Counted from the first letter of the stretch, positions 20,579 through 38,637 are shown. The stretch is 64,000 nt of DNA from an uncultured Candidatus Saccharibacteria bacterium (GCA_964509605.1 CAZDXF010000001.1:79619-143618); one strand, 5' to 3'. A program made the numbers and translations. The notes: generated from the sequence alone by a model not told the origin.

Positions 20579-22081
20579 TTACTTTTCAAACCTCACAATG
20601 TCCCCTTCCCCAAGTCCCTCTAAAATTTCCAAATAACCCTGAGAGCCGACAAGTCCTACAGACACTTCAGTTTCTATTATATTTCCATTTTCAACTTTCT
20701 GAACAAATTTTTTTCCATCTCTTTCAAATACTGCAAATTGCGGAACAGTCAGTACCCCCTCCTTCTTTTCACTTTCTATTTTTATATCAGCTGTAAGACC
20801 GCTTTTTATTTCAGCCGGTGATCCATCAAGTTTTATTTTTACTTTATAATTCACCACTCCATCTACCAAGGTTTCAGCCGGATCTATAAAAAATATTTCG
20901 CCACCAAAATCCCTTTCAGGAAAAGCGTCAAAAACAATTGTCGTTTTATTGCCAATGGCAATTTTTCCAATATTTACTTCTGAAACATTTGCCTCTATTT
21001 CCATTTCTCCAGCTGAAATTACCGAAACTAAATTCACATTTGGAGAAATAATTTCTCCCAGTTTTGCGTCTTGTTTTGAAACTACCCCTGAAATCGGAGA
21101 TCTCAATACCAGTTTTTCCATCTGAGCCTCTATAGCTTCAACCTGAGCTCTCAACTGTGCAACTCTTGCTTCTTGCGCCAATACCGCTTCAAACCCTCCG
21201 TTTTCAATTTCTCTTGGTGCAGAATTATATTTTTCCAACGCCAGATTGAAATTTGAAATTGCTGTACTGACAGAAGTTCTGGCCAATGCAACTGAAGCTT
21301 TATATCCGTTAATAGTAGTCTCGTATTGGAATTCTGGTGCGGTTAGCAAATTTGCCGCTTTAGAAACATCGTCTAGAAAAGAACGAGCTTGATTTAAGAC
21401 AACCTTAGCTTCCTCTATAAATGGAGATAGATCTTCAGCATTATAAATATTAAGCAAATTAGAATTCCATTTTTGGAGTGCAATTTCTAGTGAATATCTT
21501 TTGTTAGAAATATCTGCTTTTATGTCAGCCGAAAGTGGAAAAGTATAAACGGTGTTTCCGTCAATGAAAGAAAAATCAATATATGTGGTTGAAGTTCTGG
21601 GATTTTTGAAAAACTGGTCTACATTGTTTCTAATAGCGTCGTCTGTTTTAACATAGGAATCTTGAATCCTGTCTACAAGAGCCAAACGAGCATCTGAAAA
21701 AGATCCTGAGCTAGTCCTTTTTATTTCTTGAAGTCTAACAAGCCCTTCATTTAGATTTGCATTTGCTCTTGAAAGCTCGGCAGAAACTTCTGTTTGATCC
21801 AGTCGAGCTAGTACCTCTCCTTTTGATACCTCTTCTCCAACTTGAGCTCCGACAAAAGCGACTCTTCCTGCTTTCTCAAAAGCCAAATCGGCGCTCATTA
21901 CAGACTTAGCCTGCCCAGTAGCCAAAACCTCTCGCACAACATTTCCTTTTACAACAGCGATGTCCTCAAAACCATTCTTATTGCCATTTCCAGACACTAC
22001 AAAAATAATTATTAATACAACTGCCAGCAAAAACAGAAGTTTCTTTCTTTCTCTCAAAATCTTTAATATTTTTTCTTTCAT
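20579..22081 (-). CDS. Efflux transporter periplasmic adaptor (HlyD/MacA family)
   Basis: N-terminal TM segment, a long coiled-coil hairpin, and beta-barrel/lipoyl-like domains. It forms an operon with the ABC ATPase and FtsX-like permease. Confidence 0.8.
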   Translation of the reverse strand: MKEKILKILRERKKLLFLLAVVLIIIFVVSGNGNKNGFEDIAVVKGNVVREVLATGQAKSVMSADLAFEKAGRVAFVGAQVGEEVSKGEVLARLDQTEVSAELSRANANLNEGLVRLQEIKRTSSGSFSDARLALVDRIQDSYVKTDDAIRNNVDQFFKNPRTSTTYIDFSFIDGNTVYTFPLSADIKADISNKRYSLEIALQKWNSNLLNIYNAEDLSPFIEEAKVVLNQARSFLDDVSKAANLLTAPEFQYETTINGYKASVALARTSVSTAISNFNLALEKYNSAPREIENGGFEAVLAQEARVAQLRAQVEAIEAQMEKLVLRSPISGVVSKQDAKLGEIISPNVNLVSVISAGEMEIEANVSEVNIGKIAIGNKTTIVFDAFPERDFGGEIFFIDPAETLVDGVVNYKVKIKLDGSPAEIKSGLTADIKIESEKKEGVLTVPQFAVFERDGKKFVQKVENGNIIETEVSVGLVGSQGYLEILEGLGEGDIVRFEK

Positions 22082-26437: not shown

Positions 26438-26450
26438 CTCTTCTGTCTAC

Positions 26451-26500
26451 TTATTACTGTTTACTAATTACTATCTATTAACTCCTGCCTACTATTTTAG
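26451..26500. repeat. TACTGTTTACTAATTACTATCTA...CCTACTATTTTAG motif, copy a of a 3-member repeat family
   Basis: Related copies lie at 34467..34535 and 38600..38637. Each lies just after a GC-rich terminator and overlaps or abuts the stop codon of a convergent minus-strand gene. Confidence 0.5.
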
Positions 26501-26974
26501 TCCCTTACAATTAGAAGCTGGTACATAACCAGCTTTTCTCGCCTCTTCTATTGAAGCGAAAGTTATTTTATTTTCTTCTGCAATTCTTTTTGCGCCCGAA
26601 CACCATGGATAATGATACTTATCACTATTTTTGGAACCAACAACAATTCCATTTTCCTGACTTTCAATTTCATTTTTTATAGTTTTTTGAATTTCTGAAG
26701 AATTGAGCTCGTCTAAAGATAGAACTGCGGAAGCCGAACTATTATCAAAAAACAGCACTTCCGGAGCCGTCTTCTGATCTTTATAAAAAGACAATCTTCC
26801 CAAACCAAAAGAGCCCAGAGCGACCAAAATAATCAAAACTCCTAAAAATAAGTGTTTTTTGACATCATCCCCCCTATCTTTTGGCTCCAAATCAAAAACC
26901 TCCTCTTCATAATTAGCCTTGTTTTGAGGGTCATCTAGGGGGTTGATTTTATTTGACTCTTCTTTTATACTCAT
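26492..26974 (-). CDS. Membrane-anchored protein with C-terminal Ada-N-terminal-like (sunset-like) metal-binding domain
   Basis: One TM helix and a C-terminus KYHYPWCSGAKRI...FASIEEARKAGYVPASNCKG, which resembles the Ada zinc-binding pattern (x..CRPSC...F.S..EA..AGFRPCKRC). Confidence 0.55.
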   Translation of the reverse strand: MSIKEESNKINPLDDPQNKANYEEEVFDLEPKDRGDDVKKHLFLGVLIILVALGSFGLGRLSFYKDQKTAPEVLFFDNSSASAVLSLDELNSSEIQKTIKNEIESQENGIVVGSKNSDKYHYPWCSGAKRIAEENKITFASIEEARKAGYVPASNCKGLK

Positions 26975-26976
26975 CC

Positions 26977-27110
26977 CGTTAGAAGCAGGTCGCGGTCAAG
27001 CGATCTGAGGATTGAAAATAGGTTGTTAATTATCTAATATTTATACTTCTTAATGGTCTGTTTCCTGTTATAACCACGACTGTGGCTTCTAACGGGACTC
27101 ATATCCTGTA
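26977..27110 (+). promoter_or_regulatory. Structured leader upstream of rpmA, closed by a 12-bp long-range inverted repeat
   Basis: CCCGTTAGAAGC (26977-26988) pairs with GCTTCTAACGGG (27099-27110), enclosing ~110 nt directly upstream of the L27 gene. Confidence 0.35.
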
Positions 27111-27153: not shown

Positions 27154-27426
27154 ATGGCATCGAAAAAAGCAGCTGGATCAACAAAAAACGGAAGAGATTC
27201 CAATCCGAAATATCTCGGAATCAAAGTAAGCCCAGGAGCACTAGCTTCTGTTGGTTCTATTTTGGTACGACAAAGAGGAACCGATGTACTCCCTGGTAAA
27301 AATGTTGGTATGGGAAGAGACCACACCCTATTTGCTCTCAAGAATGGAAAGGTGGAAATGAGTCACAAAAGAAAGACTCACTTTGACGGCAAAATAATCA
27401 GAAAGAAAATAATAAGCGTAAACTAG
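27154..27426 (+). CDS. rpmA: 50S ribosomal protein L27
   Basis: [24 protein letters not shown]...VRQRGT...[15 protein letters not shown] is a canonical L27. Confidence 0.9.
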
Positions 27427-34425: not shown

Positions 34426-34470
34426 AAACACCCCGTTTCGCGATTCGCGAAACGGGGTGTTTTTTTCTAC
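34426..34470 (+). terminator. Rho-independent terminator
   Basis: AAAAAACACCCCGTTTCGCGATTCGCGAAACGGGGTGTTTTTTT. Confidence 0.7.
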
Positions 34471-34535
34471 TGTCTACTAACTACTTCCCACTATTTACTG
34501 TCTACTGTTTACTAACTACTGTCTACTATTTTATT
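34467..34535. repeat. TACTGTCTACTAACTAC...TGTCTACTATTTTA motif, copy b (tandemly reiterated)
   Basis: Contains several iterations of TACTGTCTACT / TTTACTAACTACT. It abuts the rplU stop codon. Confidence 0.5.
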
Positions 34536-34935
34536 TTATTCCCACAATTTCTACTTCAAAATATGGTTGTCTGTGTCCGTATTTTTTAAAGTATCTGCTC
34601 TTCTGTTTGTATTTTATTGTCGTCACTTTTGCATTCCTTCCAATTTTCACCAAAGTCCCCTCTATCTTTGAACCACCTATAACCGGAGTGCCGATTGTGG
34701 TTGTTCCTTTTCCATCATCAAAAAGCAACACTTCATCAAAAACAATTTTGTCTCCAGCTTTATAATCCCCCTTTATTTTTTCAACTTTAATTTTATCTCC
34801 ACTGGAAACCTTGTACTGCTTTCCGCCTGTTGCAAAGACTGCAAACCACCCCTCTTTTGGCAGAGAAGTTTTACTCTTTGCTGGAGCTTTTTTCGCCTTT
34901 TTTTCGGTCTTTTTTACTTGAGTTTCTTTAGACAT
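34531..34935 (-). CDS. rplU: 50S ribosomal protein L21
   Basis: The C-terminal 100 aa match L21 (FAVFATGGKQYKVSSGDKIKVEKI...). A Lys/Ala-rich N-terminal extension begins at MSKETQ. The longer track ORF 34531..35076 is an in-frame read-through of the structured leader. Confidence 0.85.
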   Translation of the reverse strand: MSKETQVKKTEKKAKKAPAKSKTSLPKEGWFAVFATGGKQYKVSSGDKIKVEKIKGDYKAGDKIVFDEVLLFDDGKGTTTIGTPVIGGSKIEGTLVKIGRNAKVTTIKYKQKSRYFKKYGHRQPYFEVEIVGIK

Positions 34936-35267
34936 AACGGGCTCTATTCTATATAAAATCAGGAAAATGGCAAGGCCCTCGAATCGCTCGAGGGCCCGTG
35001 CACCACCCCTTGCTGGGAGTGACCTAAAACTTAAGATTTCACCAACAAGGAGAGACAGTTGGTCACCCCCTCTCAAAGGTTGAGGTTTTGACCTCTAGCC
35101 GATGAGAGAGAGCTTACGGACGACTGTAGCCCATGGTGCATCTCCAAAGCTGGGGTAGGAGGAGAACTGCGGAAGGGTGTTGCGGTTGTCTAAACCTTTT
35201 TCGGAATAAGACCCCCTTTGGTTCAGTCTTTCTTTATTATAACCCCGACTTCACTTAAAACTGGGGA
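34936..35267 (-). promoter_or_regulatory. ~330-nt GC-rich, highly structured 5' leader of rplU (possible ribosomal-protein autoregulatory leader or embedded ncRNA)
   Basis: TATAAT at ~35225. Multiple nested helices, e.g. GGGGGUGACC/GGUCACUCCC, GAGGUCAAAACCUC, and GGCCCUCGAGCGAUUCGAGGGCC. No plausible ORF other than the artefactual rplU N-extension. Confidence 0.4.
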
Positions 35268-36353
35268 TTATTGATCATCAGCGATATCAGGCTTTTCAAG
35301 TACGAGAGATTCCACTCCTACAGCTGTGCCCGTAATTCTTAAAACATCTTTATCTATTTTCCCTAGCTCTTTCCTAGAAGAATTAAAATGATTTACCACA
35401 GTACCAAGAGATGTGCCGAGTTTATCGTGATATTCTTCGTAACTTTTTATATGCTTCCCTAGTTCACTCACGCGCTTTATAATATCTTGCGCCGTTTCCT
35501 CTATTTGCAGGGCCTTTAGACCCTGAAGTACTGTTTGGAGATACGCCAAAAAAGAAGTTGGAGAAACGATAATTACCCTCTTTTCTTTAAATGCATATTC
35601 AATCAGATCTCTTGTATTGACCTTCACTGCACCCACTTGAGATATTAGCAAGTCATAATATATTGCCTCATGAGGAATGAACATAAAAGCAAAGTCCATA
35701 GTCCCCTCCATCGGTTTAACATATTTTGAAGTCTCATCTATCCGGTTTTTTAGGTCCGTTCTAAAAGCTTTTTCCAAGCGCTCTTTTTCTGCGGAGTCTT
35801 TTTCTTCCACCAGACGGTTATAGTTTTCAAGAGAAAACTTAGAATCAACTGGTATTATTTTATCTTTTACAAAAACTACCGCATCAACAATCGTTCCATC
35901 AGAAAAAGGATACTGCATTTGGAAACTCTTTGGCGGTAAAACATTTTTAAGGAGAGTTTCCAAATAATATTCTCCCAGTATCCCTCTTTGCTTTGGATTC
36001 TTTAAAATATCCTGGAGAGATTGCAGTTGGTCGGCAAAAGACACCACCTGCTTATTTGTTTCATCGAGTCGTGTAAGACGCTCTGTAATATCGCGAATAA
36101 TTTTTACAGATTCGCTAGACTGGTGTCGCATCGTTTCGTGTAGCTCTCTGGCATTTTCTGCCATCTTTGAATCAAGTGTTTTTGTAAGATCATTTAAATT
36201 GCGAGCCATTTCATTAAACTGATTTTGGATAAGCATAAGCCCTCCTTCCGGTTCACTTTCTTTTTTGCGACCTGAAAAAATGCGCCACAAAAAAACCGTG
36301 TTCAACACGAGAATAACCAAAAGAAAAACAAAAAAATAAGCGCTGTTTATCAT
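35268..36353 (-). CDS. rmuC: DNA recombination protein RmuC
   Basis: N-terminal TM segment, a long coiled coil, and a C-terminal RmuC nuclease-like domain (VDAVVFVKDKIIPVDSKF...FAFMFIPHEAIYYDLL). Confidence 0.8.
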   Translation of the reverse strand: MINSAYFFVFLLVILVLNTVFLWRIFSGRKKESEPEGGLMLIQNQFNEMARNLNDLTKTLDSKMAENARELHETMRHQSSESVKIIRDITERLTRLDETNKQVVSFADQLQSLQDILKNPKQRGILGEYYLETLLKNVLPPKSFQMQYPFSDGTIVDAVVFVKDKIIPVDSKFSLENYNRLVEEKDSAEKERLEKAFRTDLKNRIDETSKYVKPMEGTMDFAFMFIPHEAIYYDLLISQVGAVKVNTRDLIEYAFKEKRVIIVSPTSFLAYLQTVLQGLKALQIEETAQDIIKRVSELGKHIKSYEEYHDKLGTSLGTVVNHFNSSRKELGKIDKDVLRITGTAVGVESLVLEKPDIADDQ

Positions 36354-36868: not shown

Positions 36869-36934
36869 AAATTTCCACTTGATTTTCGTTAGATGAGTAT
36901 ATACTAGAATACAGAACCCTTTCATGGAGGAATT

Positions 36935-37423
36935 GTGCTGACACTTTCCGCATGTTCCTTTGACATCCAAGTGAGCTCGATGAGTTTGAGTAGGGTCATA
37001 ACCGCTGGAGATTACGATGTCCTGCACCCTCACATCGGGAAAATAGACCTTTCTGTCTGTGACGTGCCCCTCAGTACCAAGGACAGTGGTGTCCGCGTCA
37101 TAAGCTTTGCAACGGTGCGATCCTTAAACGGCAAAGCCGAAGAAGCATACAGGTGTTTCAAAAAGTTCAAAAAGAAACGATTGGCATTGCTTCGCGAATT
37201 TCTTCACATCGGAGTTTGCAAGCCGGAAATTCAAAGGTTCTATCAGATCTTTTGTCTTACGGCGATGTTTCCAGTAAGAAGGTTGAATGGCAAGTGGACC
37301 TCAGTCGTCCTGTTTCTTGATACGGACAAACTCGGAAGAAGGTGTATCGGTCTGCACGATATAGAGAACCCTCTGCCAATGAGTGCTGTGGTTGCCTATG
37401 TGCAATACCCAGAAGTAAGCTGA
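36935..37423 (+). CDS. Hypothetical protein (162 aa); GC-rich cassette gene (GTG start)
   Basis: GGAGG Shine-Dalgarno sequence 4 nt before the GTG. About 50% GC. Own TTGATT...TATACT promoter and a terminator at 37445-37490. No motif recognised. Confidence 0.5.
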   Translation: MLTLSACSFDIQVSSMSLSRVITAGDYDVLHPHIGKIDLSVCDVPLSTKDSGVRVISFATVRSLNGKAEEAYRCFKKFKKKRLALLREFLHIGVCKPEIQRFYQIFCLTAMFPVRRLNGKWTSVVLFLDTDKLGRRCIGLHDIENPLPMSAVVAYVQYPEVS

Positions 37424-37444
37424 CCATCACCAGCGTATCCAGAC

Positions 37445-37490
37445 AGCCCTGGCCCGTTTTAAACGGACCAGGGCTTGCTCTTTTTCATTA
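37445..37490 (+). terminator. Rho-independent terminator
   Basis: CAGCCCUGGCCCGUUUUAAACGGACCAGGGCUUGCUCUUUUUC. Confidence 0.6.
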
Positions 37491-37579
37491 TCCACAGTTT
37501 CTTGACTTTTTCTTTAAAATATGATAGTATTAAGATCGGAAAGCTCCACTACACTCTAACCGAGGGAAGGAGGGGGGGT

Positions 37580-37849
37580 ATGATTCCCCAGGTTTCGTTC
37601 CAAGACCTCGTAAAAGAGGTCAAGGAGCGCCACATTTCGACCGGTGCTCCTCTCACCCTGCTGGTGGGAGAGGCACTCGCAAGATGTGGTACTGCTGATC
37701 CAGAAGCGAAGTGCAAGCTTCTGTCGGCGGTCGTAGGCGAAGTCCCCTCTTGGAAGCAGGTTCGGAGGGGACTCGTGGAAGAACGGCGGGGCCGTAGTGG
37801 CGTGGTATATCGCGCCGAAAACGGCTTCCAGCCAGAGCGGGACGACTAG
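37580..37849 (+). CDS. Hypothetical protein (~90 aa); GC-rich cassette gene
   Basis: Canonical TTGACTTTTT-N17-TAGTAT promoter at ~37501-37535. GGAGGGGGGG Shine-Dalgarno sequence. A hairpin terminator overlaps the stop (GGGACGACUAGUACAGUCGUCCC + U-tract). Coordinates are ±1 nt. Confidence 0.45.
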   Translation: MIPQVSFQDLVKEVKERHISTGAPLTLLVGEALARCGTADPEAKCKLLSAVVGEVPSWKQVRRGLVEERRGRSGVVYRAENGFQPERDD

Positions 37850-37971
37850 TACAGTCGTCCCGTATTTTTTATTTTAAAAATTAAAAAGCGCGCCGTTGAC
37901 TAACTAAATATTTTATACTATTGTTTGCGCTAGCAGTTCCTAAACAAACAAAAACTACTTTGGAGGTATAT

Positions 37972-38544
37972 ATGTCCACCGAAGGACAGACCAACGACTC
38001 AGCCAACGAGCTGATTCGAAGTTTTCCGAAGGACAGAAGGCTCTTTTTGGGCGACACGGTGGATGCAAAAGAGTCTCGCAGACTCATTTCAAGCATCGTA
38101 TCGCTCTCTGCAACTGAAGACCCAATTCTTCTTACCATCAATTCTGGTGGAGGAGGTTTTTGGGAAGGACACTATCTCTATGATGCAATCAGGGTGTGTC
38201 CAGTATCTGTCACAGGTCTTGTGATTGGTACGGCCTCGTCTGTGGCTTGCGTTATCCTGCAGGCCTGCAATCGAAGATTGATCACCAAACACTCCAGAAT
38301 TCTGGTTCACCCTCCGTCTTTCAGAGGAGATGTGGAGTTTGACATTCACTCTGACAACGAGAGGACTCTCCGAGAAATGCGACACTGGTACAAGGAATTC
38401 AGGCGCAATGTGAGGAGAACTGAAGAACTCCTTCTCAATCATTGCAACCTGAACAGGAACCAGCTTCGCAGTCTTATGGAAAAGGAACTGTATCTCGAGT
38501 CTGACGAAGCGCTAAAAATGGGCTTCGTGGATGAAGTGGTTTAG
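37972..38544 (+). CDS. ClpP-family serine peptidase (S14), stand-alone; GC-rich cassette gene
   Basis: RLFLGDTVD...LTINSGGG...YDAI...GTASSVACVIL (Ser)...SRILVHPP (His)...ESDEALKMGFVDEV (Asp) aligns to the ClpP catalytic triad. GGAGG Shine-Dalgarno sequence, TTGACT promoter, and a GC hairpin terminator. About 50% GC. Confidence 0.8.
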   Translation: MSTEGQTNDSANELIRSFPKDRRLFLGDTVDAKESRRLISSIVSLSATEDPILLTINSGGGGFWEGHYLYDAIRVCPVSVTGLVIGTASSVACVILQACNRRLITKHSRILVHPPSFRGDVEFDIHSDNERTLREMRHWYKEFRRNVRRTEELLLNHCNLNRNQLRSLMEKELYLESDEALKMGFVDEVV

Positions 38545-38599: not shown

Positions 38600-38637
38600 T
38601 TCTGTCCACTGTCTACTAACTATTGTCTACTATCTTA
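38600..38637. repeat. TCTGTCCACTGTCTACTAACTATTGTCTACTATCTTAA motif, copy c
   Basis: Matches copies a and b. It overlaps the stop codon of the convergent Ogt-like gene. Confidence 0.5.

Follow-up and report, generated by a model that had tools for sequence, protein, structure and literature searches.

Does a long, GC-rich and well-folding gap in front of a ribosomal protein gene belong to the 5' untranslated region (UTR) of that gene, or does it hold an RNA of its own? The question is raised by a stretch of 64,000 nucleotides from an uncultured Candidatus Saccharibacteria bacterium (GCA_964509605.1, CAZDXF010000001.1:79619-143618), hereafter called the window, in which rplU, the gene for ribosomal protein L21, is separated from rmuC, the next gene upstream on the same strand, by a gap of 332 nt (34936-35267). 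An earlier note on this DNA had taken the gap for a long, structured and possibly autoregulatory rplU leader, and had named a hidden noncoding RNA gene as its fallback. It is the fallback that we favour. The gap carries its own -10 box and its own terminator-like hairpin, it is conserved in 14 lineages, and a promoter-like site for rplU follows it. We consider it about an even chance that the gap holds, on the same strand as rplU, a separate transcription unit about 250 nt long, acting as a translation-gated, ribosome-engaging riboregulator, and is not the 5' UTR of rplU. Such a unit would double as the tail of the rmuC transcript.

Results

Distribution and conservation of the element

A protein-guided scan of one genome per GTDB species gave 80 rplU loci, and in an nhmmer search with the gap a single one of these, L019, gave a match (E 1e-51; 304 nt at 80.6% identity). 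L081, L083, L084, L207, L210, L211, L213, L222, L223 and L224 were added by way of close L21 or RmuC homologues, and the more distant L008 and L016 by inspecting long spacers. Together with the window these are the 14 lineages to which the counts below refer; among the 80 GTDB loci only L019, L008 and L016 bear the element. The best matches of L21 and RmuC all come from metagenome-assembled genomes of Patescibacteria (Parcubacteria/Paceibacteria-type).

The gene order rmuC, element, rplU was found in every element-bearing lineage. Nearly all of the group shares the synteny of rmuC and rplU, in most cases with a short spacer, and position alone therefore does not show whether the element serves rplU. 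The element varies in length from 190 to 310 nt, and its invariant motifs stand in a fixed order across the 14 lineages. The earlier note had proposed a look at the homologous upstream regions of related genomes, and it is this comparison that brought out the element in 14 lineages, with helix strands that have changed while their pairing was kept. Between the window and L019 the 80.6% identity of the element includes long invariant blocks, and the third codon positions of rmuC are 54% identical. An identity above that of the rmuC third positions indicates that the element is under purifying selection and is not a decaying pseudogene.

The element was then compared with known RNAs. At the gathering score, no Rfam match to it was obtained in the window or in the 13 homologous loci; in the window, Rfam and ARAGORN found only a tRNA-Glu, which lies elsewhere. 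Known structured RNAs (RNase P RNA, tmRNA, the signal recognition particle (SRP) RNA, 6S RNA, T-box and riboswitches) were rejected as candidates, as neither Rfam nor ARAGORN matched them. A covariance model built from four close lineages recovered these four alone, and neither the window nor two 20-kb relatives gave a further copy. When metagenomes were scanned for the core motif as a pattern, at least 120 matches were returned, on unrelated high-GC contigs, with no homologue among the matches listed. The alignment of all lineages by MAFFT and RNAalifold was poor; in four lineages RNAalifold predicts the same core helix, described below. We found no description of such an element in the literature. 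Taken together, the element is a new, clade-restricted putative RNA, the parts of which resemble those of leader-peptide switches, with apparently no gene behind the masked Shine-Dalgarno (SD) sequence.

A predicted terminator and promoter in front of rplU

Two features that the earlier note overlooked lie between the element and the rplU ATG:

34962-34997, minus strand: intrinsic-terminator-like GC hairpin, GGGCCCUCGAG-CGAU-UCGAGGGCC (34997-34974), then UUGCCAUUUUCC
34946-34973, minus strand: promoter-like site of rplU, with -35 box TTGCCA (34973-34968), 16-nt spacer and -10 box TAGAAT (34951-34946); 10 of 12 consensus matches in the promoter scan

A GC hairpin occupies the terminator position in every lineage, and its sequences differ in a compensating manner; in L210, L211 and L213 it is followed by UUGUCUUUUUU. 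The U-tract is found on the minus strand only. In the window it is interrupted (UUGCCAUUUU), and termination at this hairpin may be leaky. Since rmuC has no terminator of its own, the hairpin at 34997-34962 is the sole one available to it. The U-tract overlaps the -35 box of the rplU promoter-like site, and the rplU ATG comes 10 nt past the -10 box with no SD sequence before it. The arrangement is not peculiar to the window. A TTG-type -35 box, a spacer of 15-17 nt and a -10 box that is usually TAnAAT precede rplU in all 14 element-bearing lineages, the distance from the end of the -10 box to the ATG being 9-10 nt in 12 of them. Related Paceibacteria with just a terminator hairpin between rmuC and rplU have a promoter of this kind too.

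The gene starts of the window are of a similar kind. SD-like sequences 3-12 nt upstream were found in only 6 of the 58 window genes, and a -10-like hexamer ends 6-10 nt before the start codon in 11 of them, including rmuC, yqeY, dnaB and rplU; the hexamer is so placed in many first genes of operons. It suggests that leaderless or near-leaderless mRNAs may be widespread in the host genome. Given a hairpin with a U-tract, then a promoter-like site with its -10 box just before the ATG, in a genome poor in SD sequences, rplU is most likely a near-leaderless transcription unit of its own.

The features from which the earlier note had started are real. A GC-rich gap of ~330 nt does follow a TATAAT; its core (34975-35230) has a GC content of 53.1%, against 38.8% for the window, and its minus-strand fold of -116 kcal/mol (z = -3.2) was equalled by none of 100 shuffles, the plus-strand fold being weaker (z = -2.1). 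What did not stand is the step from this gap to a single rplU leader, because the terminator-like hairpin and the promoter-like site intervene: with the two of them between the element and the ATG, the element is predicted to lie outside the rplU 5' UTR. As a practical warning, a long GC-rich gap upstream of a gene is not to be read as a 5' UTR in such genomes.

Anatomy of the element in the window

The element spans about 250 nt (about 35230-34974, minus strand), and its parts are, in the order of predicted transcription:

35236-35241, minus strand: -10 box TATAAT of the element's predicted promoter, ~27 nt past the rmuC stop
35190-35219, minus strand: SD1, AAAGGGGG (35219-35212), and the position of the first short open reading frame (mini-ORF1)
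35114-35145, minus strand: SD sequence GGAG (35145-35142) and mini-ORF2, ATG GGC TAC AGT CGT CCG TAA (35134-35114), encoding MGYSRP
35103-35113, minus strand: 5' strand of the core helix, GCUCUCUCUCA, pyrimidine-rich and anti-SD-like; pairs with 35075-35065, -20.6 kcal/mol including flanks
35078-35100, minus strand: inner hairpin GGCUAGAGGUCAAAACCUCAACC between the core strands, in the minimum-energy fold
35061-35075, minus strand: 3' strand of the core helix and SD2, UGAGAGGGGGUGACC, a masked complement of the 16S rRNA 3' tail
35003-35054, minus strand: second pyrimidine/purine hairpin, CUCUCCUUGUUGGUG ... CACUCCCAGCAAGGGGUGG, predicted for the window and L019 in their minimum-energy folds

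TATAAT or TATACT stands at the place of the -10 box in 12 of the 14 lineages; TATATT was matched in L008 and L222, and L222 has a TATACT a few bases downstream. From this box we infer promoter activity, with a putative transcription start near a conserved AGAC at about 35229-35226. The assignment to the minus strand follows from the orientation of the promoter and the U-tract, from the better minus-strand fold and from the G-U pairs of the core helix, which would be A-C mismatches on the opposite strand and fit the minus strand only.

Canonical mini-ORFs, with an SD sequence and an ATG or GTG start, were found in 13 of the 14 lineages, L016 being the exception. In the window, mini-ORF1 starts with a non-canonical ATT (ATT CCG AAA AAG GTT TAG, 35207-35190). 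The same columns in the relatives read AAAGGRGG, 5-8 nt, ATG or GTG and then a short ORF of 4-13 codons; the peptides, each closed by a stop codon, include MGKKC, MIKW, MDNA, MRRYNTG, VHKKNW, MTRKRTPSCSPTP and MYVKK. The mini-ORFs span 4-28 codons across lineages, and it is their frames, not their peptides, that are conserved. For mini-ORF2, whose stop codon directly adjoins the pyrimidine strand of the core helix, the homologues are MSNSP (L019), MNHSP (L210) and MIRSP (L211), and a 3-nt indel between the window and L019 preserves the frame. The longer upstream ORF (uORF) of L222 likewise terminates in Ser-Pro-stop, an ending seen in five lineages. SD-like 5-mers are enriched fourfold in the element. 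The second hairpin is common to the window and L019 only, and different inserts are found in its place in the other lineages.

A related motif was noticed in L044, which lacks the element. Its rmuC-rplU spacer (about 2420-2590) holds CAGTCCGTAAGG, which shares its motif with the end of mini-ORF2, AGTCCGTAA, but has neither a start codon nor the masked SD2; this may be a remnant or chance.

A masked complement of the 16S rRNA tail

Every lineage has the core helix, its duplex energy lying between -14 and -24 kcal/mol. The strands are altered in some lineages and the pairing is kept, as in L207 (ACCUCCUUCAGUA/UACUGAAGGAGGU) and L223 (CACCUCUCUUCG/CGAGGGGAGGUG). The inner hairpin is conserved between lineages neither in sequence nor in length, which argues against a ligand-binding aptamer. 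In the window the 3' strand of the helix, UGAGAGGGGGU (35075-35065), runs on into the SD2 motif (GGGGGUGACC).

SD2 has the form G(A/G)GGUG(A/U)(U/C)C in all 14 lineages; it ends in GAUC in 11 of them, in GACC in the window and L019, and in GUCC in L211. Except for L016, it is the sole such site in each element-bearing rplU locus. The motif can pair with GAUCACCUCC at the end of 16S rRNA (verified on E. coli rrsH), over 10-13 nt and in L016 over 17 nt, and it is conserved beyond the needs of the internal helix. A search of the element-bearing lineages for ATG, GTG or TTG 4-12 nt downstream gave no start codon or ORF that is conserved after SD2.

The mini-ORF stops lie close to this helix. In the window, L019, L211, L207, L008 and L083/L084 a stop is placed at the foot of the 5' strand, and L210 joins them when its minimum-energy fold supplies the pyrimidine strand; the partner chosen by the automatic duplex is a different one. 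In L213, L222, L224, L083 and L084 a stop lies 0-3 nt before SD2; the stop of L081 is a UGA inside SD2 itself, and the uORF of L223 runs through the pyrimidine strand. In nearly all lineages, then, a stop falls within the 5' strand, 0-9 nt away from it, or 0-3 nt ahead of SD2.

Two further roles for SD2 were tried and rejected. Antisense pairing of ~40 nt, from SD2 onward, with the last 40 nt of 16S rRNA (helix 45 and tail) gave -31 to -44 kcal/mol and failed the shuffle control: shuffles of the downstream 30 nt gave similar energies in most lineages (z from -3.3 to +1.1). These energies are not special, owing to the C/U-rich composition, and only the 10-13-nt core is claimed here. An L21 extended at its N terminus from SD2 was also considered; of 11 lineages only 5 keep the rplU frame open as far upstream as SD2, and sister lineages differ in this respect.

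L016 (Zambryskibacteria CG10_big_fil_rev_8_21_14_0_10_42_12) differs in its layout. In its rmuC-rplU spacer (2500-2920) two small units follow one another, both having a -10 box and a terminator of their own. AAAAGGAGGTGATCCAGCC in the first is perfectly complementary, over 17 nt, to the common bacterial form of the 16S 3' end; the second has both an anti-SD-like GATCCTCCTCCT and an SD-like CCAAGGAGG. This double unit suggests that a wider family of such putative RNAs may exist at the rmuC-rplU junction.

rplU, rpmA and other features of the window

Outside the element, the features considered are:

34531-34935, minus strand: rplU (bL21, 134 aa; PF00829, E 2.6e-30)
35268-36353, minus strand: rmuC, the gene upstream of rplU
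27154-27426, plus strand: rpmA (PF01016, E 6.5e-32)
26969-27102, plus strand: 122-nt insertion (26975-27096) flanked by an ACTCAT direct repeat (26969-26974, 27097-27102)

The identities and coordinates of rplU and rpmA given in the earlier note are borne out by the Pfam matches, and an identical 134-aa L21 protein is present in the database. The gene coordinates also confirm that the two genes lie 7 kb apart on opposite strands. The separation is real and yet, against what had been supposed, not unusual: rpmA stands beside rplU in none of ~100 related rplU loci, and the separation is ordinary for the clade.

A second structured leader had been proposed for rpmA, closed by a 12-bp long-range stem. 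The stem exists, at 26975-26986 / 27085-27096 and not at 26977-26988 / 27099-27110; it consists of the 12-bp perfect terminal inverted repeats CCCGTTAGAAGC / GCTTCTAACGGG of the insertion (fold z = -3.2), which sits between the start of a divergent gene (26974) and rpmA. The orthologous spacer, from the start of the divergent gene to the rpmA ATG, is 51 nt long in L220 and 21 nt in L219; both have a single ACTCAT, and their flanks otherwise align, with the insertion absent. The repeat did not turn up again in the 64-kb window or in 220 fetched loci, and Rfam gave nothing relevant at the insertion. With its stem being the terminal repeat of a segment that L219 and L220 lack, the supposed rpmA leader looks like a lineage-specific insertion resembling a miniature inverted-repeat transposable element (MITE), with a repeat like a target-site duplication.

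Two other observations were made in the window. A 10-mer, GTAGACAGTA, occurs three times, with one further copy at one mismatch, in the 3' UTR of rplU (34468-34526, minus strand), between the stop and the terminator; variants lie at 26441-26464 (minus strand), 3' of the stop of the gene at 26492-26974, at 38607-38630 (minus strand) and once at 21667-21676. In all, 9 matches at up to one mismatch were observed, against 1.4 expected. The region 36869-38544 is GC-richer than the window, reaching 61% at 37650-37800. It contains, at 36935-37423, an ORF of 162 aa without a Pfam match and with a strong GGAGG SD sequence, unlike most window genes, and a ClpP gene (37972-38544) which also bears a strong GGAGG. 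In relatives, small ORFs without a Pfam match are likewise called at the counterpart of this region, which may be acquired DNA.

Discussion

A possible mode of action

A separate, translation-gated RNA might work as follows. Ribosomes would load at the exposed SD sequence and translate the mini-ORF. A ribosome reaching the mini-ORF stop at the foot of the helix, or in some lineages 0-3 nt before the masked site, would melt the helix and so expose SD2, a strong complement of 16S rRNA with no ORF behind it, which could then hold the small subunit. In its most specific form the proposal is that of a stand-alone RNA which captures the 16S anti-SD tail in a translation-dependent way, the mini-ORF gating a perfect complement of 10-13 nt that parks or titrates small subunits. 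This particular version appears rather unlikely to us.

Several points weigh against the separate, translation-gated unit. Both promoters, the terminator and the translation of the mini-ORFs are read from the sequence. For the output there are only candidates, namely the stability or activity of the RNA itself, or read-through and occlusion at the rplU promoter next to it. All known copies of the element lie between rmuC and rplU, within an ancient synteny. The interrupted U-tract of the window would make read-through into rplU possible, and the first mini-ORF has no canonical start codon in the window and L019. Finally, the helix energies were beaten or equalled by shuffled upstream sequence in only 0-4 of 200 trials in eight lineages, but in 7-79 of 200 in the other six.

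Alternative explanations

The closest competitor is a ribosome-mediated transcription attenuator of rplU. According to this explanation, a transcript from the upstream TATAAT would either stop at the hairpin or read through, and a ribosome on the mini-ORF would decide by releasing the G-rich strand of SD2, which could then pair with the 5' arm of the terminator, rich in C. The classical list of parts is complete (promoter, SD sequence, short uORF, alternating pyrimidine and purine strands, terminator, gene), and the imperfect U-tract of the window would suit it. When a ribosome footprint was imposed on the uORF stop, the upstream pairing of the terminator 5' arm rose modestly in four of the seven lineages scored for pairing probability, from 0.58 to 0.87 in L019 and from 0.52 to 0.72 in L210. 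Over the seven, however, no consistent change between terminator and antiterminator was obtained: the pairing of the 5' arm was unchanged in the window, L081 and L207, the terminator persisted in the constrained folds of every lineage, and the freed SD2 had no conserved alternative partner in them. In addition, a full and conserved promoter-like site stands between the terminator and the ATG, where genes controlled by attenuators normally have none, and the same promoter serves rplU in relatives without the element. With no SD sequence before the rplU AUG, a read-through transcript would also need translation from an internal AUG. We rank the attenuator second to the separate translation-gated RNA, as a possible though doubtful explanation. 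Far behind both comes a leader that would bind L21 by mimicking its site on 23S rRNA. Autoregulatory leaders are known for other ribosomal proteins, with a putative one for L21 in Firmicutes (RF00559), and what favours such a leader here is only the position beside rplU and a stable structure. Neither RF00559 nor the other ribosomal protein leader models were matched, and L21_leader, for which the earlier note had suggested an Rfam scan, gave no match at the gathering score or even at E <= 10 (34800-35400). Conservation falls on the SD-like and anti-SD-like strands and the uORF signals, not on an internal loop, and the inner hairpin varies between lineages. No consistent resemblance to 23S rRNA emerged when all lineages were compared with 16S and 23S rRNA (rrlH) of E. 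coli by short-word BLAST, a weak test with so distant an rRNA; apart from scattered 8-10-mers, the sole match was one of 10-14 nt, antisense to the 3' end of 16S. The terminator and promoter part the element from rplU as well. The long autoregulatory rplU leader of the earlier note is not supported, and an L21-binding mimic seems very improbable.

It might also be asked whether the element belongs to rmuC. A module of the rmuC 3' UTR, or a small RNA derived from it and acting in trans, could use the masked site or the pyrimidine strand as its seed, or could protect against exonucleases in the manner of STAB-SD. As rmuC has no terminator before the element, its transcripts would run through to the shared hairpin; the -10 box right after the rmuC stop recalls DapZ and MicL, which are 3'-UTR small RNAs with a promoter of their own; and SD2 has no ORF behind it, like STAB-SD. 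On the other hand, no targets were found, none having been sought, and a ribosome-binding site located 3' cannot shield the upstream rmuC from 5'-to-3' decay. We hold this explanation to be quite unlikely; it overlaps the reading as a separate unit and does not exclude it. That the element is non-functional, being a decayed small gene or compositional noise, is hardly credible. Its mini-ORF peptides are indeed not conserved and its length ranges over 190-310 nt, but its 80.6% identity stands against 54% at synonymous sites, the invariant motifs keep a fixed order in 14 lineages, and the changes in the helix compensate one another.

Implications

To our knowledge, almost nothing is known about gene regulation or translation start in the uncultivated Patescibacteria (candidate phyla radiation, CPR). 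Here an SD-poor genome nonetheless keeps, under strong selection, an SD-rich putative small RNA beside a ribosomal protein gene. If this RNA senses or engages ribosomes, it would offer a handle on translational control in a major and poorly understood branch of the bacteria. As a sensor or titrator of ribosomes it would have no described counterpart, and as a leader-peptide switch it would be new in design, the masked site having no gene behind it. An RNA that captures the 16S tail could tune the few genes led by SD sequences, or report the level of free ribosomes to the rplU promoter.

Comparison with known systems

Translational attenuation of the ermC type, as in erm and cat genes, is similar in that a helix masking a second SD sequence comes after an exposed SD sequence with its short leader ORF, and would be opened by a ribosome that has reached the end of this ORF. 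In ermC, however, the second SD sequence serves the regulated gene a few bases on, whereas no start codon or ORF follows SD2; a terminator and a separate promoter come after the element in place of a resistance gene, and the peptides of 4-28 residues are not conserved. Attenuators of the trp, pyrBI and vmlR/bmrCD type share the series of promoter, SD sequence, uORF, alternating complementary strands, intrinsic terminator and gene. Unlike these attenuators, the element has a conserved promoter-like site between terminator and gene; no conserved antiterminator pairing was found in it, and the terminator is predicted in both states.

With the STAB-SD of Bacillus thuringiensis cryIIIA the element has in common a strong complement of the 16S 3' end without an initiation role or a conserved start codon, which in most lineages lies roughly 70-140 nt upstream of the next start codon. 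STAB-SD is free at the 5' end of a processed mRNA; in contrast, SD2 is masked by a helix, with uORFs before it and a terminator after it. The Rfam L21_leader (RF00559), found before the rplU-ysxB-rpmA operon of Firmicutes, also lies upstream of rplU. It differs from the element, which matches it in neither sequence nor structure, is ~3 times longer, occurs in a different phylum with rpmA outside the operon, and has a terminator and a promoter between itself and rplU. In the autoregulation of rpsU in Flavobacteriia, where SD sequences are likewise scarce and the anti-SD is sequestered, a rare strong SD sequence also stands beside a ribosomal protein gene. There the SD sequence drives the ribosomal protein ORF itself; in the element it would drive the mini-ORFs or nothing, and the neighbour encodes a protein of the large subunit.

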